In this document: in pieces, positions 1,295 to 17,991 of the stretch
How the letters are laid out: each line of letters starts with the position of its first letter
Position numbering within the stretch: position 1 is the stretch's first letter
From: Candidatus Coatesbacteria bacterium
GTDB taxonomy: Bacteria; RBG-13-66-14
Assembly: GCA_014728225.1 (NCBI GenBank)
Contig: WJLX01000177.1
Coordinates: 1-17,991 of the forward strand
Reading direction: 5' to 3'
DNA: 17,991 nt
Position numbers and translations under genes: made by a program
Notes under the pieces: model-generated
Seen by the model: the letters and a program-made list of their open reading frames with translations, nothing else
The model's database searches: none
Told to the model about the DNA's origin: nothing

Positions 1295-1310
1295 TCAAGC
1301 GCGATAAGTC

Positions 1311-2282: not shown

Positions 2283-2317
2283 GATTGACCGCTCCAGAAA
2301 GGGTGATCGGCCGAAAG

Positions 2318-2501: not shown

Positions 2502-2529
2502 CGGGCGGGTGGCGACTACCTTTCTCGGG

Positions 2530-2958: not shown

Positions 2959-2959
2959 C

Positions 2960-3550: not shown

Positions 3551-3670
3551 GCCGCGTTCCCAGCGGCACAGCAGGTGTTTGCGGGCCGCGCAACCGAAGC
3601 ACTCGTCGGCCGGTTTCAGGTGCAGGGCGTAGGCGTCGAGGGTCTCTCGACCATCGATGATGTTCCATCT

Positions 3671-4333: not shown

Positions 4334-4881
4334 GGCCGGGGAGCGAACAGGTGGCTCCAGCGACCTTTGCCGCGGAGCGTGAACAAACCGCCGGTCTTCG
4401 TCTGCTCCACCAGCTCGGCGTCGGCCAGGTGATGGTCCTCGACGGCCAAGGTGCCGCAGTTTTTGAGTACCCGGTTCAGCTCGGCCAGGATCGGTTGCGG
4501 CTCGGTGAAGTTGTGCAGGACGTCAAAGAGCAGCACCACGTCGACGCTGTCGTCGTCGAGGCCCGTCGGGCCGGTCGAGGTGATGGTGCGCAGGTTGTTC
4601 AGGTCCTTGGCGGCGGCTTTGGCGGTGACCTTCTTGGCCGCCAGAGGCACCCGGTCGAGGGCGTAGACGAGGCCGGCCGGTCCGACGATCTGCGCCGCCG
4701 GGATGCTGTAGCCGCCGGGGCCGCAGCCGAAGTCCAGCACCGTCATCCCCGGGGCGACGCCGACCTCAAGCAGGATCTCCCCGAGGGGCTTGCGCTGGTA
4801 GCGCCCGGCCTCGAACTTGGCGCTCATCTCCTCGAAGGCGGCCTCGGACATCGGACCGCCGGTTTTTTCGCTCCCGCTCAT
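4330..4881 (-). CDS. class I SAM-dependent methyltransferase (small, about 183 aa)
   Basis: Motif I VLDFGCGPGGYS, an acidic residue at the end of beta-2 (YALDRV), and VVLLFDVLHNF (motif IV region). There is no DPPY/NPPY DNA-methyltransferase motif. ATG at 4881 has a GAGGA SD 6 nt upstream. Confidence 0.8.
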   Translation of the reverse strand: MSGSEKTGGPMSEAAFEEMSAKFEAGRYQRKPLGEILLEVGVAPGMTVLDFGCGPGGYSIPAAQIVGPAGLVYALDRVPLAAKKVTAKAAAKDLNNLRTITSTGPTGLDDDSVDVVLLFDVLHNFTEPQPILAELNRVLKNCGTLAVEDHHLADAELVEQTKTGGLFTLRGKGRWSHLFAPRP

Positions 4882-4914
4882 CGGTTCCTCGCTGATTATC
4901 GCGCCGCGCGGCAA

Positions 4915-4952
4915 CGAGTATAACAAACGGAACCGCCCGGCGCGGTTCCGTT
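4915..4952 (-). terminator. intrinsic terminator-like hairpin (11-bp GC-rich stem AACGGAACCGC/GCGGTTCCGTT), followed on the minus strand by UUUGUUAUACU
   Basis: Seen in sequence. It lies between the small ORF 5151..5294 and the methyltransferase start. The + strand has a weaker T4 tail. Confidence 0.4.
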
Positions 4953-5150
4953 GGCTTTTATGAGGGCGGGGTCAGTTCCAACGACCGCCCCGGCCGCCTC
5001 CCGAACCGCCGCGACAACCGCTGCCACAGCTTTGGCAGGCCCGCGGGTGGTTATGCTGCGCGGGCCGCCGGTTGTTCTCAAAGACTCGCCGGACGTCGCC
5101 TAGTGCGGCACCTTTTCGCTGTTCTGGCGGTTCTCCGGGGGTACCAGACC

Positions 5151-5294
5151 CTAGCTGTCGAAGAGGGTCGGCAGGGCCCGCTGCAGGGCCCGCTGGTGCC
5201 GGCGCTCGGCCTCGCTGACCTCGATGTCCAGGCTCTGAGCGGCGACGGGCGCTCCAAGGGCCGAGAGAACGAAGATCATTGACAGGCTGCGCAT
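5151..5294 (-). CDS. 47-aa ORF with a Sec-type signal peptide (MRSLSMIFVLSALGAPVAAQS...); below the ORF-track size cutoff
   Basis: Hand translation of the minus strand gives MRSLSMIFVLSALGAPVAAQSLDIEVSEAERRHQRALQRALPTLFDS*. It uses GC-rich codons and is followed by the terminator-like hairpin. No obvious SD. Confidence 0.3.
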   Translation of the reverse strand: MRSLSMIFVLSALGAPVAAQSLDIEVSEAERRHQRALQRALPTLFDS

Positions 5295-5399
5295 GGCGCA
5301 GCTCGTTGTTGGCTTGAGCGAGATCAGCAGCGTGATATGGTGTATATTACCAGTAAGTTGCTGGGAAATTGCGTGGGCTTATGAAAGGGAATCGGCTGG

Positions 5400-6330
5400 C
5401 AGCGGTTCAGTTTTTCTTTCGTTTATTATTTCTCGCAGCTTTCCTAGCATTTATAAAAAGCATTTTATTTTTATCATACTCACTTTTTAGCCATTCAATA
5501 AACGCATCATTATATACTGGACATGGATAGTGTTTAGATATATAGCAGTAAGGTGAATTAATATCTATGTTATAGTATTGTTTTACATATTGTATATCCT
5601 GTTGAGAGATCTGTTGACCTTTATTTATATATTTATTCATTTCCTCTACAACATATCCCATTCTTCGACAATGTGTTTTATCAGATTTTTCTGCTCTAAA
5701 TTCTGGAGCATTTGGATCATTTGTTATTCGAATTGTATCAGATAATTTTGTAACACTAATACTATCATGTGCTTCTGCAGGAGTGTCCATAAATATTTGT
5801 ATTTTATCAAAAAAATCATGCATATGTTCGTCAATTCTTTCGTTAATAAGATTTCTTATGTCGTTAGAATTTGCGATTTCAGATTTTGAACCATGTCGTA
5901 CATATATAGTTCCTTTTCTAAATTCATGCTTAACTTTTTTGTCAGATTTATATTCACCATCCTTTTCAAATAATAATGGGTACTTACTTTTACTGATGTG
6001 TATAGCATTAATAATTCCATCTTTTCTTTCAATGTTTACGTGATCAATGCAGTCATATTGAGTGCCAGTATACTTATATATTTTATCAACAAGAGGGGCT
6101 AAATCAATTTTATAATCTTCATAGTTGCATATCTTTCCGTTATCATCAATATTAAATAACAATACTCCACCGTCTGTATTTGCAAATGCAACGATTTCTT
6201 TTATCAATTTTAATAATAATCGCTTGTTCTTAAGGTTGTAGTGTTCCTTAAACTCAATATACTTCGTTTCTATTGTTGTGGTTCTTGAAACTCTAAGCAA
6301 TTCTGTTTTATCCATTTCTTTTCCTTTTAT
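5400..6330. mobile_element. about 0.93-kb AT-rich compositional island (single-gene insertion); no integrase or obvious flanking direct repeats seen
   Basis: An abrupt GC-to-AT switch sits exactly at the stop codon of the upstream gene (6327). The AT-rich tract ends at the island gene's stop (5407). Confidence 0.5.
5407..6315 (-). CDS. AlbA_2 / Schlafen-box (divergent-AAA) domain protein, AT-rich xenogeneic gene
   Basis: The ORF-track frame 5407..6801 is chimeric. The real start is the ATG at 6315 (MDKTELLRVS...), preceded by AAAGGAAAAG. The N-terminal ETKYIEFKEHYN...IKEIVAFANTDGGVLLFNIDDNGKI is the signature E-x-EFK...AFANT-GG-LL-G(V/I)-D of Pfam AlbA_2/Slfn core. Composition is about 30% GC against about 68% in flanking genes. 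Confidence 0.75.
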   Translation of the reverse strand: MDKTELLRVSRTTTIETKYIEFKEHYNLKNKRLLLKLIKEIVAFANTDGGVLLFNIDDNGKICNYEDYKIDLAPLVDKIYKYTGTQYDCIDHVNIERKDGIINAIHISKSKYPLLFEKDGEYKSDKKVKHEFRKGTIYVRHGSKSEIANSNDIRNLINERIDEHMHDFFDKIQIFMDTPAEAHDSISVTKLSDTIRITNDPNAPEFRAEKSDKTHCRRMGYVVEEMNKYINKGQQISQQDIQYVKQYYNIDINSPYCYISKHYPCPVYNDAFIEWLKSEYDKNKMLFINARKAARNNKRKKN

Positions 6331-6824
6331 CGCTTTGTCGCCAGCCTGCCCCCGGGGCAGGTCTCGCGGTAGGCGCATCTGGGGCAGAAGGTGGGGAAGA
6401 AGATCGTCGTGTGCAGCAGCAGCAGGCCGACGTAGAGCGCAGCGTACCACCAGGCCGCCGTGAACAACCAGTACAGCGGGAACAGCAGGATGGCCACGAC
6501 GAAGGAGATACCGAACGCCGCCGCCCGGTCGTAGGCCTTCTTCGTGTGCGCGGCATGGGGATGAAGCAGTTTGGAGAGCGGATTGGCCAGGTAGACGCCG
6601 TAGATCGCCGGGCAGAAGCGCCCCCGGTAGGGGCAGCCGACACAGCAGCGCGCCTGGGCGACATGGACGCCCAGGAGCAGCGAGAGGTAGATGACGCCCA
6701 GCCACCAGGAGCTGGCGAAGAGCAGCCAGGCGGCGCCGATCAGCGCCGCCAGCGCCGGGAGCAGCAGCAGAACGTAGTACAGCTTCTGCCGGGCGGTCCA
6801 CTGATGGGGTGGGTGGGAGGACAT
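6327..6824 (-). CDS. multi-pass membrane protein with two CxxC-type cysteine clusters (possibly DUF2085-like)
   Basis: 165 aa with 4-5 hydrophobic helices. Cysteine clusters CCVGCPYRGRFCPAIYG and FCPRCAYRETCPGG. GC-rich codon usage. Its stop is 11 nt before the AT-rich gene's start. Confidence 0.65.
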   Translation of the reverse strand: MSSHPPHQWTARQKLYYVLLLLPALAALIGAAWLLFASSWWLGVIYLSLLLGVHVAQARCCVGCPYRGRFCPAIYGVYLANPLSKLLHPHAAHTKKAYDRAAAFGISFVVAILLFPLYWLFTAAWWYAALYVGLLLLHTTIFFPTFCPRCAYRETCPGGRLATKR

Positions 6825-7053
6825 GACGGGCTTGTGGCCGAGCTGTCGGGGACGGTCGCCCCTGCGTTATACGACTGGAGTTAGTCGATCCTGCGGCAAG
6901 AACTGATCTTCAGCCGCCATACGGGAGAAAGCCGACTTGAACGGGCCGCACCCCTCAAAGCGTAATCGGGCGGTGGACGTCAATGAAGATGGATCGTCCA
7001 TGTAAAGCGCACTTCTCAGCATCAGTCGGGCGGGAACTCTGTACTCAGCCCGA

Positions 7054-7527
7054 CTAAACCGCGCCCCGCAGCAGATGGCAGATGGCCGCCGCCAGGGCGT
7101 CGGAGGCGTCGTCCGGTGTAACCGGCTCCCGCAGGGCCAGCAGGCGCTGGACCATGAAGGCCACCTGGCTTTTGACGGCCTTGCCCTTGCCGGTGACGGC
7201 GCGCTTGATCTGCATCGGGGTGTACTCGTGGACGGGCAGCCCGGCGCGCACGGCGGTCAATACGCAGACGCCGCGGGCGTGGCCCAGCAGCAGGGCGGTG
7301 CGGGGGTTGACGGCGCTGAAGACGGTTTCGACGGCGCAGCAGTCGGGGCGGTAGGTGTCGATGACGGCGGTCAGCTCGGTGTAGATGCGCTCGAGGCGGC
7401 GGGGCAGCTCCCAAGCGGGTTTGGTGGGGATGTGACCGTAGAGCAGGCCGCGCAGGCCGCGGCCCTGCTCTTCGACCAGGCCGTAGCCGGTGCTGGCGAG
7501 GGAGGGGTCGATGCCCAGGACACGGAT
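7054..7527 (-). CDS. ruvC: crossover junction endodeoxyribonuclease RuvC; no canonical start codon, putative AUC start
   Basis: Hand translation gives (I)RVLGIDPSLASTGYGLVEEQGRGL...ETVF...TPDDASDALAAAICH with all RuvC catalytic acidic residues. It is in frame with the yebC TAA and has no intervening ATG/GTG/TTG. A GGGAGA SD sits 6 nt before ATC (7525-7527). The ORF track captured only the last 68 aa from an internal TTG. Confidence 0.8.
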   Translation of the reverse strand: MRVLGIDPSLASTGYGLVEEQGRGLRGLLYGHIPTKPAWELPRRLERIYTELTAVIDTYRPDCCAVETVFSAVNPRTALLLGHARGVCVLTAVRAGLPVHEYTPMQIKRAVTGKGKAVKSQVAFMVQRLLALREPVTPDDASDALAAAICHLLRGAV

Positions 7528-7542
7528 GGCGGCTCTCCCGGG

Positions 7543-8283
7543 TTAGTCGAATTCGACGTCGTCGGGGATGTCGTAATTGGTATAGACGTTCTGGACGTCG
7601 TCCTGCTCCTCGAGGGCTTCCAGCAGCTTGAGGACCTTCTCGCCGTCGTCGTCGTCGTCCAGGCGGATCTCGTTCTGGGGGATGTAGGCCAGGGAGCTCT
7701 CGAGGATCTTGAAGCCGGCGCGGTTGAGCGCTTCGTTGACCTGGTGGTAGTCGTTGTATTCGGTGAGGACCTCGAAGGCGTCCTCGTCGGTGATGATGTC
7801 CAGGGCGCCGGCCTCGAGGGCGACCTCCATCAGCAGGTCTTCGTCGGTGGAGCCGTCGATGACGATCAGCCCGCGGCGGTCGAAGGAGTAGCTGGCGGCG
7901 CCGGACTTGGCCAGGTGGCCGTCGTACTTGTCGAACAGGTGGCGGATTTCAGAAGTGGTGCGGTTGTTGTTGTCGGAGATGGTCTCGACGATCACGGCCA
8001 CGCCGCCGGGGCCGTAGCCCTCGTAGAGGTGTTCTTCGATCACCATGCCCGGCAGCTCGCCCGTGCCGCGCTGGATGGCCCGTTTGATGTTGTCCTTGGG
8101 CATGTTCTGCGTCTGGGCGTTGTCGACGGCCGTGCGCAGCCGGGGGTTGGCCTCGGGATCGCCGCCGCCCTCGCGGGCGGCGATGGTGATCTCGCGGATC
8201 AACCGGGTGAAGATCTTGCCGCGCTTCTTGTCGGCGGCCTCCTTCTTGCGCTTGATCGTCGACCATTTGGAGTGTCCGGACAC
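7543..8283 (-). CDS. yebC: YebC/PmpR family protein
   Basis: Full-length family signature MSGHSKWSTIKRKK...GGDPEANPRLR...; GTG start with a GGAGG SD. Classic yebC-ruvC gene order. Confidence 0.9.
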   Translation of the reverse strand: MSGHSKWSTIKRKKEAADKKRGKIFTRLIREITIAAREGGGDPEANPRLRTAVDNAQTQNMPKDNIKRAIQRGTGELPGMVIEEHLYEGYGPGGVAVIVETISDNNNRTTSEIRHLFDKYDGHLAKSGAASYSFDRRGLIVIDGSTDEDLLMEVALEAGALDIITDEDAFEVLTEYNDYHQVNEALNRAGFKILESSLAYIPQNEIRLDDDDDGEKVLKLLEALEEQDDVQNVYTNYDIPDDVEFD

Positions 8284-8339
8284 CAGTCGCCTCCGCAGTG
8301 GGGGTTCGCCGTCAGCCTAAGTCTATCAGTGGGATTAGT

Positions 8340-9713
8340 TTAGCGCTCGACGTCGCCGGTGTCAACAGCGGACGGCCGGGACGGCGGCCCATCGAGGAGC
8401 CGGCGACGCAGGGCGGGTTCCAGGACGGCGGCGGTGGTCGGACCGCGGGGACGCCCCAGAAGCAGCCCCTCGAGCAGGGCGGCGGCGGCGCTGGATGCGG
8501 TGGTCAGCTCCGGGCCGGGGCGGACGTGCAGACCGCCGAGGAGCAGCCAGGCGTTCTCGACGGGGCCCCAGGCGGCCTCGTCGGCTTCGAGCCGACGGCG
8601 CAATCCGTACCCGCCGCTACCGACAACGACGATGGTCAGGCCGGGCAGCCGTTCGCGCAACTCGGTCAGCCAGGAGTCGAGCGCCTCGAGCAGGTTCTCG
8701 TAGAGCTCGCCATAAGCCGTGGCCCGGGTCAGGGCCGTCTCATCGAGGTAGACCGGATGGGGGAAGCGCTCGTGGTAGCGCAGCTCGCGGTATCGTTGCA
8801 GGGCCGGCCACCAGCGCCGGGCGAACTCGGCCAACAACCCGGAGTCGACGACGACGGCGTCGGTCCCGGCGGCCAGCAGCCGGGCGGCCGCGTTGAGCCG
8901 CTGTTCCAATTCGTCGGCGGCCCGGCGCACCGCCGCCGAGGTGTTCAACAACGGCGGTCGGGGCAACTCGACGACGGGCGGCTGAGCTTTCAGCAACGTC
9001 GGTTGGGTCGAGGTCCGCCGGCTGAGGGCAGCCAGCCCGGTGGTATTCAAGGGGGCGGCCGTTTCCGGAACGTCGAGACGGATCAGGCAGCCGTGATCGC
9101 CCAGTTCGGCAAAGCCGTTAAGGCGACCTTCGGCCCACAGGCGCTCGAGATGGGTCAGCGCCAGACCATCCAGCCGCAGGATCAGCAGCCGCAGCGGCGG
9201 CGGCTCGACGGGCTCCACGTCGCGCAGGCGCAGCCCTTCGAGACGCAGCGAGCAGCCCCGCGCCAGGACGGTGTTGGCGGCCTCCTCGAGCAGGGCCGCC
9301 AGCCGCGGCCTCAAAGGGCCGTAGAGTTCGAGAGCGCTCAGACGACGAGCCATCCGGCCGAGCAGGGGCGGCAGGATGTACTCGGGCAGGTGGTCGAGCC
9401 CCGGACCCAACCGGGCGCGATCGGCGGCCAGGCGTTTGGGATCCAGCGTGCGAACCGCTCTGAGGCTCACCTGCACTGCGCTGCCCCGACGATCGCGCAG
9501 CGTTAGCTCCAGCCGCACCTCGCGCCGCCGGGCGATGACCTCGACGGACCGGCCGGGGAGGTCGAGGCGGCTTTCGGCGGCGATGCTCCAGCCGCCGTCG
9601 CCTTCATCGACCAGCAGCAGCTCGTCCGCCCGCGGCGTCATCGCCAGGGCCAGGTAGAGGACGATACCGGTCAGCAGACCGAGGCCGAGGACACCTGTGA
9701 TCCGCTCACGCAT
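8340..9713 (-). CDS. membrane-anchored hypothetical protein (N-terminal TM, large extracytoplasmic region); function unknown
   Basis: 457-aa ORF with protein-like composition. N-terminal helix LGLGLLTGIVLYLALA. The opposite-strand ORF is Gly/Gln/Pro low-complexity. Confidence 0.55.
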   Translation of the reverse strand: MRERITGVLGLGLLTGIVLYLALAMTPRADELLLVDEGDGGWSIAAESRLDLPGRSVEVIARRREVRLELTLRDRRGSAVQVSLRAVRTLDPKRLAADRARLGPGLDHLPEYILPPLLGRMARRLSALELYGPLRPRLAALLEEAANTVLARGCSLRLEGLRLRDVEPVEPPPLRLLILRLDGLALTHLERLWAEGRLNGFAELGDHGCLIRLDVPETAAPLNTTGLAALSRRTSTQPTLLKAQPPVVELPRPPLLNTSAAVRRAADELEQRLNAAARLLAAGTDAVVVDSGLLAEFARRWWPALQRYRELRYHERFPHPVYLDETALTRATAYGELYENLLEALDSWLTELRERLPGLTIVVVGSGGYGLRRRLEADEAAWGPVENAWLLLGGLHVRPGPELTTASSAAAALLEGLLLGRPRGPTTAAVLEPALRRRLLDGPPSRPSAVDTGDVER

Positions 9714-9829
9714 CGCCGTGTCCGCGGGTTGAGCGTACTGTAGCGCTCGGCTTCATAAGCCTTATTCTACCGCAGTTCGCCGCCGGGACCAAGCCCGACG
9801 GTCCAGGCCCGGTCGCCGGTTTGTGTGTC

Positions 9830-9851
9830 GGGACGCCTCGAGGCGTCCCGG
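9830..9851. terminator. perfect 22-nt GC palindrome (cgggacgcctc|gaggcgtcccg) in the gap after the SPFH gene; possible non-canonical terminator or REP-like element
   Basis: Seen in sequence. Flanked by tttgtgtgt on one side; there is no strong U-tract on the minus strand. Confidence 0.35.
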
Positions 9852-9885
9852 TTCATCTCTGTGAGTTAGCTCAACCCGCTGGTAT

Positions 9886-10944
9886 TCAGTCGCCGTTCTT
9901 GCCGCTGGTCAACTCGGCGAAGGCTCCCAGGGAGCCCAGGGTCTTGACGGTGTCGAAAGGCAGGAAGACGGTGTTGGAGCCCTCGCGGGCGTTGTCCTGC
10001 ACCGCCTTGATGTAGCCCCGGGTCAGCAGGTAGGTCGAGGTGTGCTCGCCCAGCTTTGCCTGGATGCCGGCCACGGCGGCGGCCTCGGCGGCGGCCTCCA
10101 GCTCGCGGGCCTTGGCCAGCCCCTCGGCGCGGAGGATCTCCGCCGCGCGGTTGCCCTCGGCGTGGGTGATGGCGGCCTGCTTGGCGCCTTCGGCCTTGGT
10201 GATGCTGGCCTGCTTGGAGCCCTCGGCCTCCTTGATCATCGCCCGGCGCTTGCGCTCGGCGGTGACCTCGGCGCGCATGGCCTCGAGGAAGTCGGCCGGC
10301 GGAGAGACGTCTTGCAGCTCGACGCGGTTGACCTTAACGCCCCACTTGTCGGTGGCCTCGTCGAGGATGTCGCGCAAGCGGGCGTTGAGGGAATCGCGGC
10401 TGTCGAAGGTTTCGTCGAGCTCCAGGGCGCCGATGGCCGTGCGCAGGCTGGTCTGGGTCAGCCGCTCGATGGCCAGGGGAACGTTCTCGATCTCGTAGAC
10501 GGCGCGGCGCGGATCGGTGATCTGGTAGTAGAGCACGGCGTCGACGGTCAGTACCAGGTTGTCCTTGGTGATCACCTGCTGGGCGGGGAAGTCCAGCAAC
10601 TGCTCGCGCAGGTCGATGACGTCGGTCCAGTAGTACTGGCCCCCCACGGAACCGCGCCCGCTGCCGTCGACGACCCTGGCCCCGTGGGGCTTGTCGGCGC
10701 CCGCCACCTGGGGGCGGCTGTCGGGTTTTGTTTTGTCGAAGGTGACCGAGGTGGTGTCGATGACCCGCAAGGGCTTGTCGAAGAAGGGCAGCACCATGTG
10801 CAGGCCGCTGTCCAGGACCCGATGGAACTTGCCCAGGCGCTCGATGACCATCACGTGGGCCTGGGGAACCTGGCGGAAGCCCTTGAGGGCGATGATCAGG
10901 ATCAGGATGAAGGCCACGCCGAGAACGATGTAGAGACCCAGCAT
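9886..10944 (-). CDS. SPFH/band-7 (stomatin/HflC-like) membrane protein
   Basis: N-terminal TM; VIERLGKFHRVLDSGLH...DLREQLLDFPAQQVITKDNLVLTVDAVLYYQITDP...WGVKVNRVELQDVSPP...AERKRRA; C-terminal AEG-repeat coiled coil. Confidence 0.9.
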   Translation of the reverse strand: MLGLYIVLGVAFILILIIALKGFRQVPQAHVMVIERLGKFHRVLDSGLHMVLPFFDKPLRVIDTTSVTFDKTKPDSRPQVAGADKPHGARVVDGSGRGSVGGQYYWTDVIDLREQLLDFPAQQVITKDNLVLTVDAVLYYQITDPRRAVYEIENVPLAIERLTQTSLRTAIGALELDETFDSRDSLNARLRDILDEATDKWGVKVNRVELQDVSPPADFLEAMRAEVTAERKRRAMIKEAEGSKQASITKAEGAKQAAITHAEGNRAAEILRAEGLAKARELEAAAEAAAVAGIQAKLGEHTSTYLLTRGYIKAVQDNAREGSNTVFLPFDTVKTLGSLGAFAELTSGKNGD

Positions 10945-10977
10945 TGTTGCTCCTTTCTGGTCGGTGGTCGGGGTCGG

Positions 10978-11877
10978 CTAGAAGTTGAACTCCTCGTCGC
11001 CGATGATGATGCGGATGGTGCGGAAGGCGATGCCCTTGGAATCCATCTCCAGGACTATCTCTCCGTCAACCCCTTGTTGAGCCAGCTCGTAGAAGCGGTC
11101 CCGCTGGACCTCATCGTCACAGAAGTCACCGCCGATAACGATAGACTTGTCCAGGGCTTCCCAACCGACATACTGGTTTGTTCCCTTGAAGGTGAACTGA
11201 TACTCACCGTACCTCCACGCCGTTCCCATCATCATGATCGGATCTCCGGCCGTGTAAGTCAGACGCCCGGGAACACGGATGGTCTGATTGGCATAGGGTT
11301 CGGAATCAGCAGCGAAAGCCGATGCTGAAACCAGAGTACCTCGACGGTCCCATTCACGGTCGATGGCCGCCAGCAGCTTGTCAACCCGGCGAACAGCGTC
11401 GGTGTCGTCGTAGGTCGAGCCGATGCTGCTCAGCTCGGTTTCCGTCTTTTCCAGCTCTTCGTCCTCGGCGCTCTTGAGACCCTCGGCGAAGCCCTCGAAG
11501 GGAGCCAGAGCCCGCAGGCAACGCTCCTCGCGGATTGCGGAGTAGGTCGAGGCGGCTTCTTCGTTGAAGGCCTCATCGGGGTAATCGGCAACCAGTCGGG
11601 CGTAGAGACCGTCGGCCCGCTCCAGGGCCGCATCGTCGGCCTCGCCGACGCCGTCGGCGGAAACGACCAGCCGGGCGCTGCAGAGCCGGCCGACGGGGGT
11701 GGTCTCGAGTTCCTCCAGCTCAGCGCTTACTGCGTCCAGTTTGGCGCGGACCTCGTCGCGCTGCGTGGTCAGGGCGGCGATCTCGTCGTTGAGTTCGATC
11801 TCGCGCTCGCTGGGGCCGCAGCCGGCCAGCAGCGTCGACAACAGGATGCAGGCGGCCAGTAGCAGTCGTCTGTTCAT
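10978..11877 (-). CDS. lipoprotein: N-terminal coiled coil plus C-terminal beta-rich domain, function unknown
   Basis: Signal peptide with lipobox LLAGC. Its start overlaps the stop of the upstream small lipoprotein gene (ATGA). Confidence 0.6.
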   Translation of the reverse strand: MNRRLLLAACILLSTLLAGCGPSEREIELNDEIAALTTQRDEVRAKLDAVSAELEELETTPVGRLCSARLVVSADGVGEADDAALERADGLYARLVADYPDEAFNEEAASTYSAIREERCLRALAPFEGFAEGLKSAEDEELEKTETELSSIGSTYDDTDAVRRVDKLLAAIDREWDRRGTLVSASAFAADSEPYANQTIRVPGRLTYTAGDPIMMMGTAWRYGEYQFTFKGTNQYVGWEALDKSIVIGGDFCDDEVQRDRFYELAQQGVDGEIVLEMDSKGIAFRTIRIIIGDEEFNF

Positions 11878-12089
11878 TGTTCTTCTCCCTCCTCAAGTTG
11901 CTGGATCTCCGGAAAGGAACGCAGTTCGGCGAGCTTGAGGCCGGCCTCGTCCAGCTCCTCCTCGAGCCGGACAATCTCCTCCTTGAGTTCAGCGCGCTCT
12001 TCCTCAAGATCCGCTATCAGTTCCTCGTCCTCACAAGCTGCGAACAAGCCTGTGCTCGCCAGTAACAGTGTCAGCGGTACGTACCTCAT
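11874..12089 (-). CDS. small lipoprotein (71 aa) with an acidic coiled coil
   Basis: Signal peptide MRYVPLTLLLASTGLFAAC (lipobox). AAGGAGG SD 4 nt upstream. Its N-region is paralogous to that of the next lipoprotein. Confidence 0.5.
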   Translation of the reverse strand: MRYVPLTLLLASTGLFAACEDEELIADLEEERAELKEEIVRLEEELDEAGLKLAELRSFPEIQQLEEGEEQ

Positions 12090-12168
12090 CCATCCTCCTT
12101 TTCACTTGGGTTGCGGTGGATACGAGTTCAACACCCCGCCCCGACAGGACGGGTCGTAGGGGTCGCGC

Positions 12169-14193
12169 TCAGTGAACCAGCGGCGCGGGTTCGGCCAGGC
12201 GCTGGACCTCGGCGGCGGTGATGACGATCCCGCGCTCCCGGTAGGTCTCGAGGTCGAAGTAGTAGGGTTCGAGCAGGCGGTCGAGGAGGCCCCGGGCCCC
12301 GCGGGCGCCCAGCCCCTTGGCGCGGGCCAGGGCGGCCAGGGCGGTCAGGGCCGCGGCGGTGAACTCCAGCTCGACCTCCCGCGAGGCCATCAGCGCCTGA
12401 TGCTGCTTGACCAGGGCGTTTTTCGGCTCGGCGATGACCCGGGCCAGGTCGGTGTCGGTGAGCTCGCCCAGCTCGCAGACGACGGGGAAGCGGCCGACGA
12501 ACTCGGGCAGCAGGCCGAACTCGATCAGGTGGGCCGGGCGCAGGGCGGGCGTGGCGGGTTCTTCCGTGGAAGCGCCGAAGCCCAGGCGGCTGGTGCGTTG
12601 TTCGCGACGACGCAGCTCGTCGAGTCCGCAGAAGGCCCCGCCGCAGATGAACAGCACGTGGCGGGTGTCCAGCGTGGCGAACTTGCGGTGGTAGAACAGG
12701 CTGCCGCTCTCGGGGAACCTGGCCTCCGCGCCCTCGACCAGGGTCAGCAGGGCCTGCTGGACGCCTAGTCCGCCGACGTCGCGGCGCCGCTTGTCCGCCG
12801 AGGCGGCCAGCTTGTCGATCTCGTCGATGTAGATGATGCCGTAGCGCGCCGTCTCGAGATCGCGTCCCGCGGCGGCGTAGAGGTCGTAGAGCAGGTCCTC
12901 GACACTGCGGCCGACGTAACCGGTCTCGGTCAGCGAGGTGGCCTCGCTGATCACCAGGGGGCTCTTGAGCAGCCGGGCCAGACTCTTGACCAAATGTGTC
13001 TTGCCGCAGCCCGTCGGGCCGACGAGGAGGATGTTGGACTTCTCCAGCTCGGTTTCGCCCCGGTAGCGGATGCGGCGCAGGTGGTTGGCCACGGCGACGC
13101 TGACGGCGCGCTTGGCGGCCTCCTGGCCGATGACATGCTGCTCGAGGTGGGCGTAGATCTCCCGGGGGCTGAGTTCGCAGTCCAACTCGGCTTTGACCTG
13201 TTTCCCCTTGCCGTCTCCGCTGTTCTCATCGTCCCCGTTCTCCTCGCGGCAATCCGTTTTGAAGCGTTGGTGGATCTGTTCGAGGGCGTTGCGGTAAGTA
13301 CGCCAGTCCTTGTTGTGCAGATGCTTGGCGGCTTGCCGCAGGTTGTGGTTGAGCTTCATCTGGGCCATGGCGAAGGGCCGCTTGCGCTGCGCCTCGCCGA
13401 AGGCGCAGACCTCGTCATAGGCCTTGTCGCACTGCTCCAGCTCACGCAGCTCGATTTTCAGGCTTGCGCAGTAGCGCTCGATGATGTTGCACAGCCCGGT
13501 CTCGTCGAAGTCGACGTTCTCCGTGCCCAGTTCCAGCAGCTCGGCCAGCCGGTGACGGTACTCGCGACCACCCTTGCTCTGCAGCTTTTCGTGGATCCCC
13601 CGGCAGCGTTCCTCGAGCTTGTGCAGCTTGCGGTAGCGGCGGGCCGGGCGGCGGGAGCGCGTGGTCATCAGCTTGTCCAGGCGCCGGGCGGCCAGGCGGC
13701 TCGTCAACCCCCGACCGCCGACGAGGAGGACGCCCAGCAAGGCCCAGCCGCCGGTGACTAACAGGCTCAAGCTCAGAGCCAACCCGCCGGAGAGGGCGAC
13801 CTCGGCGCCCCACAGCCAGAGGTCGACGCGGACCAGGGCGGCGCCGGGCACCAGCTCCAGCAGGACCAGCAGACCGACAGCGAGGGTCGTCGTCACGGCG
13901 ACGGCCAGCCCCAGATCGGGCCGGACGAGGGCCTCGAGACACCCGGGACGGGGCTGGTACTGCAGGTGTTCGCCGACGACGGCGGGCCGGGCCGCCCGCT
14001 TGAGCTGGCCCGGGAAGCCGAGCTGGAAGGCCCTCAAGCCGCCGTAGATGAGCAGCGCCGTCGGCGGGGTCAGCAGGGCCGCCGCCCAGAGAGCCGCCGC
14101 GGCCGTTCCCAGCCGAAACAGCAACACGCCGACGACGGGGGCCAGCAGGACGGCCAGAACCAGTCCGGCCAGCTTGATCGCCCGGTTGATCAT
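12169..14193 (-). CDS. membrane-anchored ClpX-family AAA+ unfoldase paralog (4-5 N-terminal TM helices replace the zinc-binding domain)
   Basis: The C-terminal ~330 aa align motif-for-motif with ClpX: IYAHLEQHVIGQEAAKRAVSVAV, Walker A GPTGCGKT, pore-1 TETGYVG, Walker B IIYIDEIDK, GVQQALLTLVEG, LFICGGAF, the IGF-loop equivalent RLGFGAS, arginine finger PEFVGRFPV, sensor-II GARGARGL. The N-terminus MINRAIKLAGLVLAVLLAPVVGVLLF... forms several hydrophobic helices. The real start ATG at 14193 overlaps the upstream stop (ATGA). The ORF-track 808-aa frame includes a spurious Arg/Pro-rich extension. Confidence 0.85.
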   Translation of the reverse strand: MINRAIKLAGLVLAVLLAPVVGVLLFRLGTAAAALWAAALLTPPTALLIYGGLRAFQLGFPGQLKRAARPAVVGEHLQYQPRPGCLEALVRPDLGLAVAVTTTLAVGLLVLLELVPGAALVRVDLWLWGAEVALSGGLALSLSLLVTGGWALLGVLLVGGRGLTSRLAARRLDKLMTTRSRRPARRYRKLHKLEERCRGIHEKLQSKGGREYRHRLAELLELGTENVDFDETGLCNIIERYCASLKIELRELEQCDKAYDEVCAFGEAQRKRPFAMAQMKLNHNLRQAAKHLHNKDWRTYRNALEQIHQRFKTDCREENGDDENSGDGKGKQVKAELDCELSPREIYAHLEQHVIGQEAAKRAVSVAVANHLRRIRYRGETELEKSNILLVGPTGCGKTHLVKSLARLLKSPLVISEATSLTETGYVGRSVEDLLYDLYAAAGRDLETARYGIIYIDEIDKLAASADKRRRDVGGLGVQQALLTLVEGAEARFPESGSLFYHRKFATLDTRHVLFICGGAFCGLDELRRREQRTSRLGFGASTEEPATPALRPAHLIEFGLLPEFVGRFPVVCELGELTDTDLARVIAEPKNALVKQHQALMASREVELEFTAAALTALAALARAKGLGARGARGLLDRLLEPYYFDLETYRERGIVITAAEVQRLAEPAPLVH

Positions 14194-14675
14194 CGTATCC
14201 CTCCCTCGAGCAGTTTCTCCCGGATCTCCTCGAGCACGATCACGGCCTCGGTACGGCGCCGGGGCAGGCTCTCGAGCACCACGGCGGGCAGTTTGATGTA
14301 GTCGAGGTCGGGGCGGCAGATCAGGCGGACGGTCAGGTTGGGGTGTTCGTCGATGAAGCGGCGCGCCATGGGAGTGCTGATGTTCCAAGCGATGGGGAAG
14401 GTGTTCTTGTCGTCGAAGCGCAGGCGCAGCAGCCGGTCTTCGGCGAAGGGCACGTAGGCGCAGAGGACGACGGGACGGTTGTTCAGGCGGTACTCGTAGG
14501 AACGGGCATGCTCGGGACCGTAGTTGTAGACCTCGACGGCGGCGGTCTCGAGGTCCCGGGGATCGTTGAACCAGCGGGCGGGATCGACCATGCACCAGGG
14601 CCCGCCCCGGTCGGCCCGGACGACGAACAGGCGGGTCAGCAGCTTCTCGGCCTGGAGTTTGATCCGGTGTTTCAT
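14190..14675 (-). CDS. hypothetical soluble protein (161 aa), translationally coupled to the ClpX-like gene
   Basis: ATG at 14675 with an AAGGAGG SD 7 nt upstream (MKHRIKLQAEKLL...). No recognisable domain. Its stop overlaps the ClpX-like start. Confidence 0.6.
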   Translation of the reverse strand: MKHRIKLQAEKLLTRLFVVRADRGGPWCMVDPARWFNDPRDLETAAVEVYNYGPEHARSYEYRLNNRPVVLCAYVPFAEDRLLRLRFDDKNTFPIAWNISTPMARRFIDEHPNLTVRLICRPDLDYIKLPAVVLESLPRRRTEAVIVLEEIREKLLEGGIR

Positions 14676-14752
14676 TGATTGCCTCCTTGAAGCGCTTGGC
14701 AATGGTGGGAGATTGGCTGAGGGCGGTGTCGCTCAGGCGGGATGTCGGCGTT

Positions 14753-16030
14753 CTATCGCAGCCGCACGCAGTCGCCGAGGGGCGGGGTCTCGGTGTTGCC
14801 GTCGGCGGTCAGGCACCACAGCACGGGTAGGCCGTCGTACCCCTCGGGCCAGGGGGCGTAGCCGTCTGTCAGTACGACGTTGTACCGGCCCCAGTGGGAG
14901 TTCTCGCTCACCCAGTCGAAGGCGTTCTGGAAGTCCGTTCCGCCCCAACCCAGTATTCGCAGCCCCATCCAGTCGCCCCGCCGGTAGTGGTGGATGTACT
15001 CGCCGTTGATGCGCTCGACCATGTGGTCGAAGATCAGCAGGCGGATGCGCAGCAGGTGGGAGATGGCCTCCAACTCGGAGAAGAACTGCTGCAGGTGGGT
15101 AGGCTTGATGCTGCCGGAGACATCAACCATGACCAGGATGTCGGCCTTGGCGTGACGGCTGTGCCCCTTGACGCCGAAGACGGGCCGGCGACGGTTGGGC
15201 CGGGCGTAGGTCGGACGGCTACCGCCCAGATAACGGCCGATCAGGTTGCGCAGCCGCTGACGCCAGTCGATCAACGGCACGTCCAGGGCCTCGAGCAGGC
15301 GGGGCAGGTCGCTGGGGCCTTTTCCACCGGATTGCGAGTAGGCGCTCTTGAGTACCCGGCGCAGGATGATCCGGTAACTCTCCTCGTCGGGAGCATCCAT
15401 CCAGGCGCCGTGGTCCATAAGACGCTCCAGCAGGGCCTGGGGGTCGCCCTCGAACCATAGGGGGATGGTGCCGCGATCCGTGTGCAGATGCAGCTTCTCG
15501 CCTCGCAGCATGGCCTCCAGGCTCCGGGCCAGCTCCTCGTAGCTCATCCGCGGCAGCCAGCGGACCAACTGCTCCAGCGCTGTGCGGCAGGAGAGCTCCT
15601 CGGGCAGGAAGACGCTGGCCTTTTCCAGAAACTCGTCACCGGCGATACCCTCGAGGTGGGGACAGCTTTTGTGGCCGTGGATGACGGCGTCCATGGCCCA
15701 ATTGAGGGCGGGGTGGTTGCGGCAGGCTTCCTTGCCGAACTGCCTGGCGCGCAGGGGGTGCAGGTGCAGGATGTGCTCCAGCTCGTGGCGTAGGATGGTC
15801 TGAGTCTGACCAACGCTCAGCCTGTCGACGAACTTCGGGTTGTAGGCCAGCACGGGACGGCCGTCGCGGTCGATCCAGACCGCCATGGTCTTGACCCGCT
15901 TCTCCCGGGGGCCGACGGTGGTGAAGTAGTTGATCAGATAGCCGTAGAAGGGCGTTTCGTTGATCAGGCGGCAACGGGCCAGGTTGATCTTCTCCAGGGC
16001 ACTCAAGCGGGTCTCAGTCGACGAGGACAC
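14753..16030 (-). CDS. putative metallopeptidase (HExxH) plus VWA-like domain protein (DUF2201-type MoxR partner)
   Basis: HELEH zinc-binding motif (ILRHELEHILHLHP) in the N-domain. VWA MIDAS DxSxS (ILVMVDVSGSI) in the C-domain. The start is ambiguous: GTG 16030 (overlaps the ATPase gene by 17 nt), TTG 16006, or the ORF-track TTG 16063. Confidence 0.8.
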   Translation of the reverse strand: MSSSTETRLSALEKINLARCRLINETPFYGYLINYFTTVGPREKRVKTMAVWIDRDGRPVLAYNPKFVDRLSVGQTQTILRHELEHILHLHPLRARQFGKEACRNHPALNWAMDAVIHGHKSCPHLEGIAGDEFLEKASVFLPEELSCRTALEQLVRWLPRMSYEELARSLEAMLRGEKLHLHTDRGTIPLWFEGDPQALLERLMDHGAWMDAPDEESYRIILRRVLKSAYSQSGGKGPSDLPRLLEALDVPLIDWRQRLRNLIGRYLGGSRPTYARPNRRRPVFGVKGHSRHAKADILVMVDVSGSIKPTHLQQFFSELEAISHLLRIRLLIFDHMVERINGEYIHHYRRGDWMGLRILGWGGTDFQNAFDWVSENSHWGRYNVVLTDGYAPWPEGYDGLPVLWCLTADGNTETPPLGDCVRLR

Positions 16031-17390
16031 CCTCCACCTCCCCGTGGCTGTGTTCGCTCTCAACGGGACGGGCGGTGCCCCTGGTCAGCTCGCCGAAGGC
16101 CGTGCAGAGATCGGTGCGTGGGGCCATCAACTGCAGCCAGGCGTCGGGGTCGTTCTTCTCCGGGGCCACCACCTCGAGGACCTGCTTCAGCGCCGCCGGT
16201 CCACCGAGAACAGCCACGCTGTAGCCCTCGCAGATGTCGAGTTCCCGGGCCCCCACCCGGGCGATCACCCGGGCCAGTCCCAGGACCAGGTCCCAGTTGG
16301 CGTTGTCGGCCTGGGGACCGAGAAGCAGGTCCAGCAGGTCCAGCACGTTGTGGCGGCGTCCGGGATGCTTGATCTCCTCGATCTTGCCCAGCAGGCTCCA
16401 AACGAGCTGGCGTACACCGTTGCGGCTGAGGTCCAACACGTCGTTCTTCCAGTACTCGCGGTCGTTGTCCAGGATCAGCGCCAGAGAGATCAGCGGTTCG
16501 GTGTTGAGGAAATCGTCCACCAGGGGCAGGCCGATCAGGCCGCCCAGAACGCGGCGATGGGCCTCCTCGCCGTAGATCCCCAGCCTTCGGGACGCGGTGT
16601 TGACCCGCCCGACGGCTTCCCAGCTCCGCGGCGAGGGGTAGACCTTGACCCCTTTATCGACGGGCTGGGCCTTCTCGTCCTTGGCGTCCAGTTGCAGCGG
16701 CCGGCCGAGGAACATCGAGCCCAGATCGCGCTCGGAAGTGTAGGTCAGGATCTTGCCGATCTCGTCACCGTCGAGCTTCGGCAACCGCCCCATGAAGGCG
16801 GCCCATTCGATCATGTACTCATCGTCGACCTCGACCTCGAGGAAGCAGAAGCGGTCGAGGAAGGCGGAGTCCAGCAGGGCGTTCTGGGAGTAGGCCGAGC
16901 TGCGTGGCGGGTTGCTGGCCGCCACCACGTCCCAGCCCGCCGGCAGGCGATAGCGACCGCAGCGGTGGTAGACGGCGCCATCTGTGTCGCGCTGATGCTC
17001 GATGAGTTGGAAGACGGCCTGCTGGACGTCGAACTGGGCGCGGAACAACTCGTCGAGGAACAGCAGCCCCCGCTCGCCGTGGACCTTCTCCTGGGGCAGG
17101 ATCGTCGGCGGGGCGAAATTGGTCAGCTTGCCGTCGGCGGCGTCATCCAGGTAGGGCAGGCCGGTGAAGTCGGCGGCTTCATGGAGCGAGCCGCGCAGGT
17201 TGATGTAGTCCGTCGGGGCCTCGTCGCCCCACAGCTCGCGCCGCAGGCGGGCGAACTCGCTGGATTTTTCGTAGCACAGGGCGCGGACCAGGGCGCTCTT
17301 GCCGATCCCGCGCTCGCCGACGAGCAGCGGGGTAACATCGGCGGCCAGGCTGAGGGTCAGCTCCTGGGCGATCTGCAGTAAACCGGGCAT
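16014..17390 (-). CDS. MoxR-like AAA+ ATPase (AAA_5 type) with a long C-terminal extension
   Basis: Walker A LLVGERGIGKSAL, Walker B LLFLDELFRA, sensor-1 VVAASNP. ATG at 17390 with an AAGGAGG SD 4 nt upstream. It is the first gene of the cluster. Confidence 0.85.
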   Translation of the reverse strand: MPGLLQIAQELTLSLAADVTPLLVGERGIGKSALVRALCYEKSSEFARLRRELWGDEAPTDYINLRGSLHEAADFTGLPYLDDAADGKLTNFAPPTILPQEKVHGERGLLFLDELFRAQFDVQQAVFQLIEHQRDTDGAVYHRCGRYRLPAGWDVVAASNPPRSSAYSQNALLDSAFLDRFCFLEVEVDDEYMIEWAAFMGRLPKLDGDEIGKILTYTSERDLGSMFLGRPLQLDAKDEKAQPVDKGVKVYPSPRSWEAVGRVNTASRRLGIYGEEAHRRVLGGLIGLPLVDDFLNTEPLISLALILDNDREYWKNDVLDLSRNGVRQLVWSLLGKIEEIKHPGRRHNVLDLLDLLLGPQADNANWDLVLGLARVIARVGARELDICEGYSVAVLGGPAALKQVLEVVAPEKNDPDAWLQLMAPRTDLCTAFGELTRGTARPVESEHSHGEVEGVLVD

Positions 17391-17433
17391 CGGGCCTCCT
17401 TTTGTAGTATTTCACAGTTAAATAATAACATGA

Positions 17434-17462
17434 CCCCCTGACAGATCCGGTCTATCAGGGGG
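17434..17462. promoter_or_regulatory. 29-nt near-perfect palindrome ccccctgacagatccggtctatcaggggg, 45-70 nt upstream of the MoxR start, followed on the minus strand by an AT-rich tract; candidate operator (or terminator/attenuator hairpin)
   Basis: Seen in sequence (one mismatched pair). The AT-rich ttattatttaactgtgaaatactac between it and the SD could hold the promoter -10. Confidence 0.4.
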
Positions 17463-17787
17463 CCAAGACTGGTAAGGGAGGAGCTCGAGTGCAGTTAAGC
17501 GCTCTTCACCACCGGGCTGCCGGGGGGATGGTGTTCACCGGTGGACCGCTCTCTCCCCCGTCGACAGAATACTAACGCGGGGGTACGACATCCGGGGTCG
17601 GGGCGGTAACACTTTTTTCCATCCGTCAGCCGCCGCCCCAACACTCAGCAGGTCAAGCAGATGCGGGCTGAAAAACCGCCTTCTCTTCTTGGGGATACCT
17701 TAACGCTCATGGGTCGTCATATGTGTGATTGTCTTGTCTTCACGAAAGTTAACGGGATGCCGTCATGTCACGAGCAATGGAGGCGCT

Positions 17788-17991
17788 GTGGCCGCCGGCT
17801 CAAAGGGTAATCCCGACAGGCATGTCACGTGTGCAAAGTGCAACTATCGCTATCACTACAGGTTAGGCGACGGGCGGCGGATGTGCAAGCGCCGTAGAAA
17901 ACGCTTTAACTATAAACCGGCTCGCCGTGGGCTTTCAGCAGAACAGCGTGAGTTGATCGCCGCGCTGTTTTGGCTTGAAGCAACCGCGGCC
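17788..17991 (+). CDS. partial ORF (runs off the window end) with an N-terminal Cys-rich basic zinc-ribbon-like segment, reminiscent of IS transposase (InsA/IS1595/ISL3-type) N-termini
   Basis: GTG with a GGAGG SD. Translation ...VTCAKCNYRYHYRLGDGRRMCKRRRKRFNYKPARRGLSAEQRELIAALFWLEATAA... has no stop before 17991. Family assignment not secure. Confidence 0.25.
   Translation, partial: MAAGSKGNPDRHVTCAKCNYRYHYRLGDGRRMCKRRRKRFNYKPARRGLSAEQRELIAALFWLEATAA

Follow-up and report, generated by a model that had tools for sequence, protein, structure and literature searches.

The gene considered here encodes a ClpX-like protein that carries a predicted membrane anchor at its N-terminus, which we refer to as TM-ClpX, and it lies in a 17,991-nt stretch of DNA from a Candidatus Coatesbacteria bacterium (GenBank assembly GCA_014728225.1, contig WJLX01000177.1, positions 1–17,991), the whole of which formed our window (Table 1). 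It is the last member of a cassette in which a MoxR-like AAA_5 ATPase gene is followed by one for a DUF2201 HExxH-peptidase/VWA protein, one for a protein of ~160 aa, and then TM-ClpX itself, and this four-gene cassette was present in all eight TM-ClpX loci we found in three clades. The hairpin just upstream of the cassette is likely to mark the 5' boundary of its transcription unit.

Table 1. Features of the TM-ClpX locus and of the encoded protein (positions are those of the window and residues those of TM-ClpX).
Feature	Position	Strand	Basis
SPFH/Band_7 protein, downstream and on the same strand as TM-ClpX	9886..10944	-	
Two small coiled-coil lipoprotein-like genes (71 aa, 299 aa), between TM-ClpX and SPFH	10978..12089	-	
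TM-ClpX coding sequence, 674 aa plus stop (NCBI MBD3401179.1)	12169..14193	-	
Small AAA+ domain, ClpB_D2-small, residues 578-667	12193..12462	-	
Sensor II GARGARG, residues 629-635	12289..12309	-	
Large AAA+ domain, ClpX type, residues 341-577	12463..13173	-	
Arginine-finger segment EFVGRFP, residues 564-570	12484..12504	-	
LGF tripeptide, residues 537-539, on the IGF ClpP-docking motif	12577..12585	-	
RKH-loop equivalent GSLFYHRK, without the RKH motif	12682..12705	-	
Pore-2 loop region	12763..12804	-	comparison with 79 canonical ClpX
Walker B IYIDEID, residues 454-460	12814..12834	-	
Pore-1 loop GYVG, residues 425-428	12910..12921	-	
Walker A GPTGCGKT, residues 392-399	12997..13020	-	
Basic helical linker, ~180 aa, residues 160-340, membrane to AAA+ ring	13174..13716	-	
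Four-TM anchor, N-in/C-in	13717..14175	-	hydropathy, K/R distribution, conservation, low-confidence model
161-aa protein, motif W-C-x-V-D-P-x-R-W..E-T-A, stop overlaps the TM-ClpX start (ATGA)	14190..14675	-	
DUF2201_N putative Zn-metallopeptidase (HELEH) fused to VWA-like DUF2201 (MIDAS-like DVSGS)	14753..16063	-	
MoxR-like AAA_5 ATPase, Walker A GERGIGKS, Walker B LLFLDE	16014..17390	-	
Terminator-like hairpin just upstream of the cassette	17431..17465	-	

The MoxR-like protein scored 34.9 bits against AAA_5 (cut-off 22) and has a helical C-terminal extension of ~270 aa, and its gene overlaps that of the DUF2201 protein. The best matches of the two proteins were to phage families (phrog_1297 at 8e-32 and phrog_1314 at 2e-45), and PDB sequence searches with both returned nothing. 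The family of the 161-aa protein occurs only directly upstream of TM-ClpX genes; the protein had no Pfam or NCBIfam match even at relaxed E-values, and its structure model was unusable (pLDDT 35). Beyond the cassette, loci of clades 1 and 3 have an SPFH gene downstream of TM-ClpX, which in L009, a distant locus of clade 3, keeps its synteny and shares 66% identity; the clade-2 loci have no such neighbour. It is uncertain whether the 71-aa and 299-aa genes are part of the system, as they are conserved among close relatives only. No clpP gene adjoined TM-ClpX in any of the eight loci. We note that housekeeping genes (RuvA, YebC and PolA as well as SPFH) lie nearby and that the chromosomal position is stable in relatives at 88–99% identity. 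The window also contains a low-GC island with an AlbA_2 gene, and weak hints of defence islands were seen at two other loci (GmrSD/AlbA_2 in L004 and a WYL regulator in L009).

In the NCBI/PGAP annotation, MBD3401179.1 starts at the ATG at 14193; this codon is preceded by the ribosome-binding site GAGGGAGGG and overlaps the stop codon of the 161-aa gene as ATGA. The N-terminus is kept in an alignment of homologues from the three clades sharing 35–48% identity, GC3 is 0.87–0.93 over the TM, linker and AAA parts of the gene, and comparison with one relative at 88% identity gave dN/dS values of 0.50, 0.49 and 0.15 for the same three parts, which show the N-terminal region to be under purifying selection. 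Because the start annotation, overlap, ribosome-binding site, conserved N-terminus, GC3 and dN/dS agree, we conclude that the hydrophobic region is translated in the annotated frame. The concern raised in the preliminary description, that the start codon might be wrong and the hydrophobic region untranslated, was ruled out by this evidence. A more general artefact, in which a wrong start or a chimeric assembly has joined a hydrophobic stretch to a ClpX-like protein to which it does not belong, is scarcely credible. It is true that long spurious ORFs arise in high-GC DNA, and the in-frame extension upstream, as far as a GTG at 14595, clearly lacks the character of coding sequence, but the full-length architecture recurs on at least eight independent contigs, which come from different samples and represent three clades, quite apart from the signals at the start codon and the coding constraint across the N-terminus.

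The AAA+ module is of the ClpX type, with 43–50% identity to canonical ClpX. The NCBIfam ClpX model PRK05342 matched residues 334–667 with an E-value of 2e-106, and comparison with solved ClpX structures gave E ~1e-81. The Walker A and B motifs, GYVG pore-1 loop, arginine finger and sensor II listed in the preliminary description all aligned on the solved structures, and the sensor-1 strand (FICGGAF, residues 515–521) and small domain are likewise held in common with canonical ClpX. The scores fell narrowly below the curated equivalog cut-offs of both PRK05342 (356.2 against 359 bits) and TIGR00382 (319.2 against 370.75 bits), because the N-domain is missing and the sequence has diverged. Membership of two related families was rejected: HslU, whose model gave 203 bits where 362 are required, split over three stretches (an IGF-type loop is also present), and FtsH, whose model gave 20.5 bits where 1008 are required.

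We follow a review in the roles assigned to the IGF, RKH and pore-2 loops and the zinc-binding domain (ZBD) of ClpX (PMC9035409). The LGF tripeptide of TM-ClpX falls column-for-column on the IGF of the E. coli and Neisseria meningitidis ClpX structures, and the loop is thus neither deleted nor mis-assigned, in agreement with the earlier claim of an intact docking loop. An [I/L]GF tripeptide is found in 8/8 family members; among the three clades, which share 35–48% identity, the rest of the loop varies and this tripeptide alone is conserved. The LGF variant also occurs in 3/79 canonical ClpX. The resemblance of HRK to the RKH motif did not survive alignment: the E. coli RKH is aligned to '-LF' in TM-ClpX with HRK three residues further downstream, this position reads HTN or GPS in the TM-ClpX relatives, and the RKH motif is found in 76 of the 79 canonical ClpX compared with none of the eight TM-ClpX family members. 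HRK was therefore rejected as an RKH equivalent, being both out of register and not conserved. TM-ClpX also differs from canonical ClpX in the length of two further segments, as the pore-2 loop is 2–3 residues shorter in the family (the protein from the window lacks two residues here relative to every one of the 79 canonical ClpX) and the segment after the IGF is 2–7 residues shorter, and these changes might weaken or alter coupling to ClpP.

The C4 zinc-binding domain of canonical ClpX is missing. No match to zf-C4_ClpX (PF06689) was found in TM-ClpX using Pfam, the canonical ClpX homologues that we recovered all carry this domain whereas six TM-ClpX family members do not, and no CxxC pairs are present in the family alignment. 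In its place are a four-TM anchor and a stalk of 180 aa, and the proposal that the zinc-binding domain has been replaced by a polytopic membrane anchor is borne out by alignment, hydropathy and homologues. There are four hydropathy peaks in the N-terminus, and we place TM1 at residues 7–28, TM2 at 33–56, TM3 at 94–115 and TM4 at 136–159, with a cytoplasmic loop (57–93) between TM2 and TM3 that carries a conserved VVGExxxYQ hairpin and an outward-facing loop (116–135) between TM3 and TM4 that carries LWxWGAE. Counts of K and R residues (the positive-inside rule) gave an N-in, four-TM, C-in topology in 10/10 members of this 4TM+linker module, and on the strength of these sequence features the N-terminus would be inserted into the membrane. 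The preliminary description had suggested four to five hydrophobic helices; the four are upheld by hydropathy and the K/R counts, while a fifth was rejected by the K/R topology and the predicted model. It should be noted that the full-length AlphaFold2 model is poor (pLDDT 57.9 overall and below 55 at the N-terminus) and gives no support to the anchor and stalk, and that no Pfam or NCBIfam match was found for the N-terminal module even at relaxed E-values. The linker had also been described as Cys-rich, a feature to which we attach little meaning: C255 is the only cysteine shared by all three clades, C197 is shared by two of them, the others are not conserved, and for this reason a zinc or other metal site in the linker is unlikely and was rejected.

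A database search for further ClpX homologues with an N-terminal TM region, as had been proposed, was successful and recovered the eight loci. The family is extremely rare, with representatives in only 2 of 185,579 species genomes, and has a very patchy distribution, being known only from uncultured organisms. In a tree with canonical ClpX, the AAA+ modules of TM-ClpX formed a separate monophyletic clade (support 100/100) that has diverged from canonical ClpX far more than the canonical proteins have among themselves. For the N-terminal module we used an exhaustive profile search against 1.84 billion proteins, as a word-indexed query with residues 1–341 came back empty despite the presence of a 99%-identical protein in the database, probably because hydrophobic words had saturated the candidates. 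A scan of metagenome contigs with the TM-ClpX N-terminal alignment found nothing, nor did tblastn of the 4TM+linker module against phage sequences, and the cassette was absent from the viral contigs that we scanned. We also found no membrane-anchored ClpX in the literature.

The exhaustive profile search recovered other rare proteins, at E-values of 8.9e-7 to 4.9e-4, in which a J domain takes the place of the ClpX motor behind the 4TM+linker module. Profile comparison of the TM-ClpX and TM-J modules by hhalign gave a probability of 99.0% and an E-value of 2.6e-18 over 302 columns, and the two have in common the four TM helices, a cytoplasmic G-E/Q hairpin loop and a stalk ending in K-x-W-x-x-Y. 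The 4TM+stalk module is an independent evolutionary unit. The closest analogue of the TM-J proteins is E. coli DjlA, which has an N-terminal membrane anchor and a C-terminal J domain (with HPD) and recruits DnaK to the membrane. However, DjlA has a single TM helix and showed no homology to the 4TM+stalk module, and, unlike DjlA, each TM-J protein is paired with a VWA gene downstream. The most informative context for TM-ClpX is this reuse of the module beside VWA genes, together with the MoxR-like/DUF2201/160-aa cassette.

ClpX is treated as a soluble protein whose specificity comes from the zinc-binding domain and adaptors, and to our knowledge FtsH and, in archaea, LonB are the AAA+ proteases that prokaryotes anchor in the membrane. 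TM-ClpX resembles FtsH in having an N-terminal membrane anchor followed by a cytoplasmic AAA+ ring, with any proteolytic partner expected on the membrane-distal face. The SPFH/Band_7 gene near TM-ClpX in two of the three clades recalls the FtsH–HflK/C association, and the cassette includes an HExxH peptidase, though on a separate protein. In contrast, the AAA+ module is of the ClpX/HslU type and not a classical AAA domain with an SRH, there are four TM helices where FtsH has two and a periplasmic domain, and there is no fused M41 peptidase (no Peptidase_M41 match).

Taken together, the anchor, the retained docking loop and the fixed four-gene cassette suggest that TM-ClpX is part of a system, so far undescribed, for remodelling or degrading proteins at the membrane. 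The explanation we favour, and consider probable though far from assured, is that the N-terminal module is a membrane dock that places a protein-remodelling engine beside a VWA partner, the engine here being a ClpX motor that probably feeds ClpP. In the ClpX hexamer the N-terminal domain is on the substrate-entry face and the IGF loops are on the opposite face, and therefore the anchor would make the entry pore face the membrane, with the [I/L]GF loops exposed to the cytoplasm and available to ClpP, which is the geometry of FtsH. The 4TM+stalk module and the VWA partner would capture targets at the membrane, the 160-aa protein, translationally coupled to TM-ClpX, may be an adaptor or regulator, and the module would bring the remodelling engine to the capture site, where the ClpX unfoldase would thread the captured or membrane protein, most probably on to the housekeeping ClpP. 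Capping of ClpP by TM-ClpX, as the preliminary description had expected, and ClpXP-type degradation at the membrane are plausible; like membrane insertion, the geometry of the hexamer, the docking of ClpP, the roles of the partners and the nature of the substrates are our inferences. We also predict that ssrA-type degrons would not be substrates, because RKH has been lost and the pore-2 loop shortened.

Several points tell against this explanation: no clpP adjoins any of the loci, the pore-2 and post-IGF segments are shortened, the equivalog cut-offs for ClpX are narrowly missed, the structure models are of low confidence and lend no support to the anchor, stalk or partners, and clade 2 lacks the SPFH neighbour. 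In addition, the cassette encodes a putative peptidase, and ClpP may therefore not be needed. TM-ClpX could instead be a ClpP-independent membrane unfoldase or extractor that works with the MoxR-like ATPase, with proteolysis left to the HExxH peptidase-VWA protein in what would amount to a split FtsH-like system. There are precedents for remodelling alone in the action of ClpX on MuA or ALAS and in Msp1-type extractors, and this alternative would account for the putative Zn peptidase (HELEH) and second AAA+ ATPase within the cassette, the absence of an adjoining clpP, the shortened pore-2 and post-IGF segments, and the sister architecture in which the motor is swapped for a J domain that would recruit a chaperone rather than a protease. 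We nevertheless regard it as unlikely, as the [I/L]GF has been kept in three diverged clades amid variable surroundings, there is no sign that a DUF2201 peptidase assembles into rings that could receive a translocated polypeptide, and the IGF loop of ClpX has been described solely as a ClpP-docking element (PMC9035409).

The cassette also bears comparison with the MoxR-vWA ternary systems described as conflict systems, some of which include a second, FtsH-type AAA+ ATPase (Kaur et al. 2020, PMC7159879; ClpX is not mentioned there). In both, genes for MoxR-class and vWA proteins are joined by a conserved third component which is another AAA+ ATPase. An anti-phage or abortive system of this type, in which the MoxR-VWA pair senses an invader and the membrane ClpX is a regulated effector, for example destroying membrane proteins, or an assembly chaperone, would fit the phage-family matches of the MoxR-like and DUF2201 proteins, the very patchy and rare distribution, and the weak defence-island hints noted above, including the AlbA_2 gene in the window. 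We think such a role rather improbable. As regards composition, the ATPase of the FtsH ternary systems is a double FtsH-type protein and soluble, whereas TM-ClpX has a single module and is membrane-anchored; the VWA-like protein here carries an N-terminal HExxH domain (DUF2201_N), and there is an additional 160-aa family and no Ubl, caspase or NEFF effectors. More generally, the cassette has no iSTAND, VMAP, double FtsH-type, beta-propeller or effector domains and no recognisable toxin domain, and bpMoxR scored below its cut-off (17 against 27 bits). PADLOC reported generic AAA similarity only, and the housekeeping neighbours, stable chromosomal position and absence from viral contigs likewise argue against a conflict role.

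Returning to the membrane dock, a wider version of this explanation, which we offer tentatively as a possibility, is a modular membrane proteostasis pathway in which the dock and a VWA (MIDAS) capture protein serve interchangeable engines, either the ClpP-docking ClpX motor or J-recruited DnaK, while the MoxR-like ATPase, HExxH peptidase and 160-aa adaptor would control the extraction and degradation of particular membrane proteins, perhaps in SPFH microdomains. If ClpP is indeed the partner, TM-ClpX would give the first natural example of ClpXP bound to the membrane and an independently evolved functional analogue of FtsH. An anchored ClpX that has the ClpP-docking motif but neither RKH nor ZBD for recognition would show that the design of ClpXP has been moved to the membrane. 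It would also offer a compact system in which to study a ClpX motor at work on substrates in or close to the membrane, although the immediate impact is limited because the family is very rare and known only from uncultured organisms. The occurrence of one anchor with either ClpX or a J domain, in both cases beside VWA genes, points to a general, unnamed membrane module that recruits remodelling machines. For the MoxR-like/DUF2201 family, which is large, uncharacterised and also common in phages, with 251 phage records, it provides a first mechanistic foothold.

The C-terminal part of TM-ClpX (residues ~334–667), the 674-aa ClpX-family protein of the window, aligns with solved ClpX structures (E ~1e-81, about 50% identity) and with the PRK05342 ClpX equivalog (E 2e-106), where its 356.2 bits narrowly miss the cut-off of 359. 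As the preliminary description had it, the Walker A and B motifs, GYVG, the arginine finger and sensor II are all there; these and the sensor-1 strand are in register with solved ClpX, and RLGFGAS, which it took for the ClpP-docking loop, lies exactly over GIGFGA(T/S), the IGF loop of these structures. Its RKH-like reading of HRK was mistaken, as E. coli RKH is placed opposite '-LF', and RKH is found in 76/79 canonical ClpX proteins and in none of the eight TM-ClpX family members. The [I/L]GF tripeptide is kept in every family member despite variable flanking residues, and in all of them the pore-2 loop and the post-IGF segment are shorter than in canonical ClpX, by 2–3 and 2–7 residues, respectively. 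In a tree with 35 canonical ClpX proteins, the family's AAA+ modules form a single clade (100/100 NJ bootstraps); they share 43–50% identity with canonical ClpX, compared with at least 59% among the canonical proteins themselves. TM-ClpX falls in the ClpX branch of the AAA+ ATPases and would be expected to work like ClpX, but departs from it in scoring below the curated cut-off and in lacking both the RKH motif and the C4 zinc-binding domain (ZBD). The most fitting description is a new variant of the ClpX family with a membrane anchor; we found no membrane-anchored ClpX in the literature. Identification as FtsH or HslU was rejected on comparison of family models.

The minus-strand ORF ending at 12169 could be extended in the 5' direction to a GTG at 14595, though the added stretch is rich in Arg and Pro and runs into the upstream gene. 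The true start is the ATG at 14193, because it is preceded by GAGGGAGGG and shares an ATGA overlap with the stop codon of the 161-aa gene before it, is identical to the start of NCBI MBD3401179.1 ('AAA domain-containing protein', 674 aa, Candidatus Coatesbacteria), and is equivalent in alignment to the N-termini of homologues, and also because GC3 is 0.87–0.93 along the entire gene and comparison with an 88%-identical relative yields dN/dS values of 0.50 (TM part), 0.49 (linker) and 0.15 (AAA+ part). An annotation artefact behind the architecture is excluded by the data.

No zinc-ribbon domain was detected in TM-ClpX by domain search, in agreement with the earlier reading, and the polytopic anchor said to replace it is borne out by hydropathy peaks at residues 1–160, which number four and not 4–5. 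The topology pattern obtained from K/R counts in alignment-defined loops is alike in 10/10 members of the module: the N-terminus is basic, the TM1–TM2 turn has 4 residues, the TM2–TM3 loop (37 residues) is basic, and the TM3–TM4 loop is acidic or neutral. The post-TM4 segment is strongly basic in TM-ClpX (9–15 K/R per 41 residues) and near neutral in some members carrying a J domain (TM-J, see below). The module is predicted on this pattern to have four TM helices, N-in/C-in, with a cytoplasmic AAA+ domain. An AF2 model (of low confidence, with shallow sequence depth) has the same helices as this picture, β-hairpins at two conserved motifs (VVGExxxYQ and LWxWGAE), and an all-helical linker; no Pfam family matches the 4TM plus stalk module. 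The linker had been called Cys-rich, but its cysteines are not conserved. C255 (window 13429–13431) alone is conserved across the three TM-ClpX clades and C197 (window 13603–13605) in two, both being absent from the J-domain versions; they could have a redox role or make an intersubunit contact particular to the ClpX version.

The full-length architecture was found in only six clusters among 5.8 billion clustered proteins, the remaining matches being ~420-aa ClpX with a zinc finger. An exhaustive profile search of 1.84 billion representatives with the N-terminal 341 residues added one distant TM-ClpX (P0121, 701 aa). Carriers amount to 2/185,579 species-representative genomes, one a Coatesbacteria MAG, and all members come from metagenomes, chiefly of microbial mats. 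The N-terminal search also recovered the TM-J proteins, of 400–420 aa, in which the same module (99.0% probability, E 2.6e-18, 302 columns in profile–profile comparison) is followed by a C-terminal J domain with HPD and no ClpX motor. In each of five independent loci, a ~215–225-aa VWA gene bearing the MIDAS motif D-x-S-G-S comes directly after the TM-J gene; the two seem to make up a so far undescribed membrane J-protein/VWA pair of low-GC organisms.

Positions of features in the window and in loci on other contigs (L prefixes)
Feature	Position	Strand	Context
TM-J + VWA pair	L011:1434-3029
TM-J + VWA pair	L014:1466-3332
TM-J + VWA pair	L015:2484-4387
TM-J + VWA pair	L016:555-2421
TM-J + VWA pair	L018:119-1626
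MoxR-like and DUF2201 genes	window 14753-17390	-	cassette
Lipoprotein-like genes (71 aa, 299 aa; acidic coiled-coil), overlapping	window 10978-12089	-	between TM-ClpX and SPFH gene
SPFH/Band_7 gene	window 9886-10944	-	downstream of TM-ClpX
SPFH/Band_7 gene	L009:13651-14619		downstream of clade-3 TM-ClpX
Split MoxR-like gene	L009:5723-7121		cassette
Duplicated 160-aa gene	L009:8816-9947		cassette
WYL/HTH regulator gene	L009:15375-16355		downstream of cassette
GmrSD_N+AlbA_2 gene	L004:260-2512		upstream of cassette
Low-GC island	window 5100-6350
Schlafen/AlbA_2-domain gene	window about 5407-6300	-	in low-GC island, between methyltransferase gene and RuvC/YebC region

The order MoxR-like AAA_5 ATPase, DUF2201_N (HExxH) plus DUF2201 (VWA-like) protein, ~160-aa protein and TM-ClpX is identical in the window and in loci of the three clades. 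Gene overlaps indicate that this cassette is probably co-translated, and a terminator-like hairpin lies upstream of it in the window. An HMM of the 160-aa family, for which we found no database annotation, matches solely ORFs directly upstream of TM-ClpX genes. We note that in the clade-3 locus (L009) a frameshift, reflecting either an assembly error or a pseudogene, interrupts the MoxR-like gene, and two tandem paralogues (183 and 169 aa) stand in place of a single 160-aa gene. Both the window and L009 have an SPFH gene a few genes beyond TM-ClpX on its downstream side, with 66% identity between the two proteins where the neighbouring TM-ClpX proteins share only 35%; it does not adjoin the clade-2 genes in the loci examined. 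The two lipoprotein-like proteins of the window, the longer with a lipobox (LLAGC), match no database family, and their genes are conserved only in close relatives.

In canonical ClpX the ZBD acts as the recognition domain particular to the family, the RKH and pore-2 loops grip the degron at the channel top, and the IGF loops dock into hydrophobic ClpP sites (PMC9035409). Given these roles, an anchor in place of the ZBD would hold the entry face on the membrane side, with the [I/L]GF loops turned to the cytoplasm, in an FtsH-like geometry. Our data concern architecture, conservation and gene linkage, from which we infer the function of the TM-ClpX system. ClpP probably remains the partner, the main argument being that the tripeptide alone is kept within a variable loop in clades down to 35% identity; a ClpP-independent extractor acting with the cassette's own peptidase strikes us as unlikely. 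The swap of ClpX motor and J domain, together with the constant VWA neighbour, suggests that anchor and stalk serve as a docking platform, which would couple VWA-mediated capture to a remodelling engine, with the translationally coupled 160-aa protein as the best candidate adaptor or regulator. We hold this docking arrangement to be fairly probable.

The cassette is similar to the MoxR-vWA ternary theme (Kaur et al. 2020, PMC7159879), yet lies outside the classes described there, and we found no functional work on DUF2201 in the literature. The best family matches of its MoxR-like and DUF2201 proteins are phage protein families, and 251 phage records contain DUF2201-like genes (25–30% identity). 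These phage-like relatives, the defence-type neighbours of some loci and the MoxR-vWA-FtsH ternary systems already described would all fit a conflict system of MoxR-vWA type, but the neighbourhood consists of housekeeping genes, PADLOC gave no matches beyond generic AAA similarity and effector domains are absent, and we consider such a role quite improbable.

The matches of the MoxR-like and DUF2201 proteins to phrog_1297 and phrog_1314 are far better than those to any Pfam AAA model, and the 'HNH endonuclease' label of phrog_1314 looks like an annotation error. The phages concerned include those of Escherichia, Klebsiella and Vibrio and jumbo Staphylococcus phages; the TM module was not found in phage and viral collections. 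Defence-associated genes are found close to the cassette in L004 (GmrSD_N+AlbA_2) and L009 (WYL/HTH). The window itself has an island of 35–43% GC (~66% elsewhere) which is present in a 99%-identical locus (L005) and replaced by unrelated sequence in a ~90%-identical one (L002), and therefore resembles a variable spot of recent acquisition.
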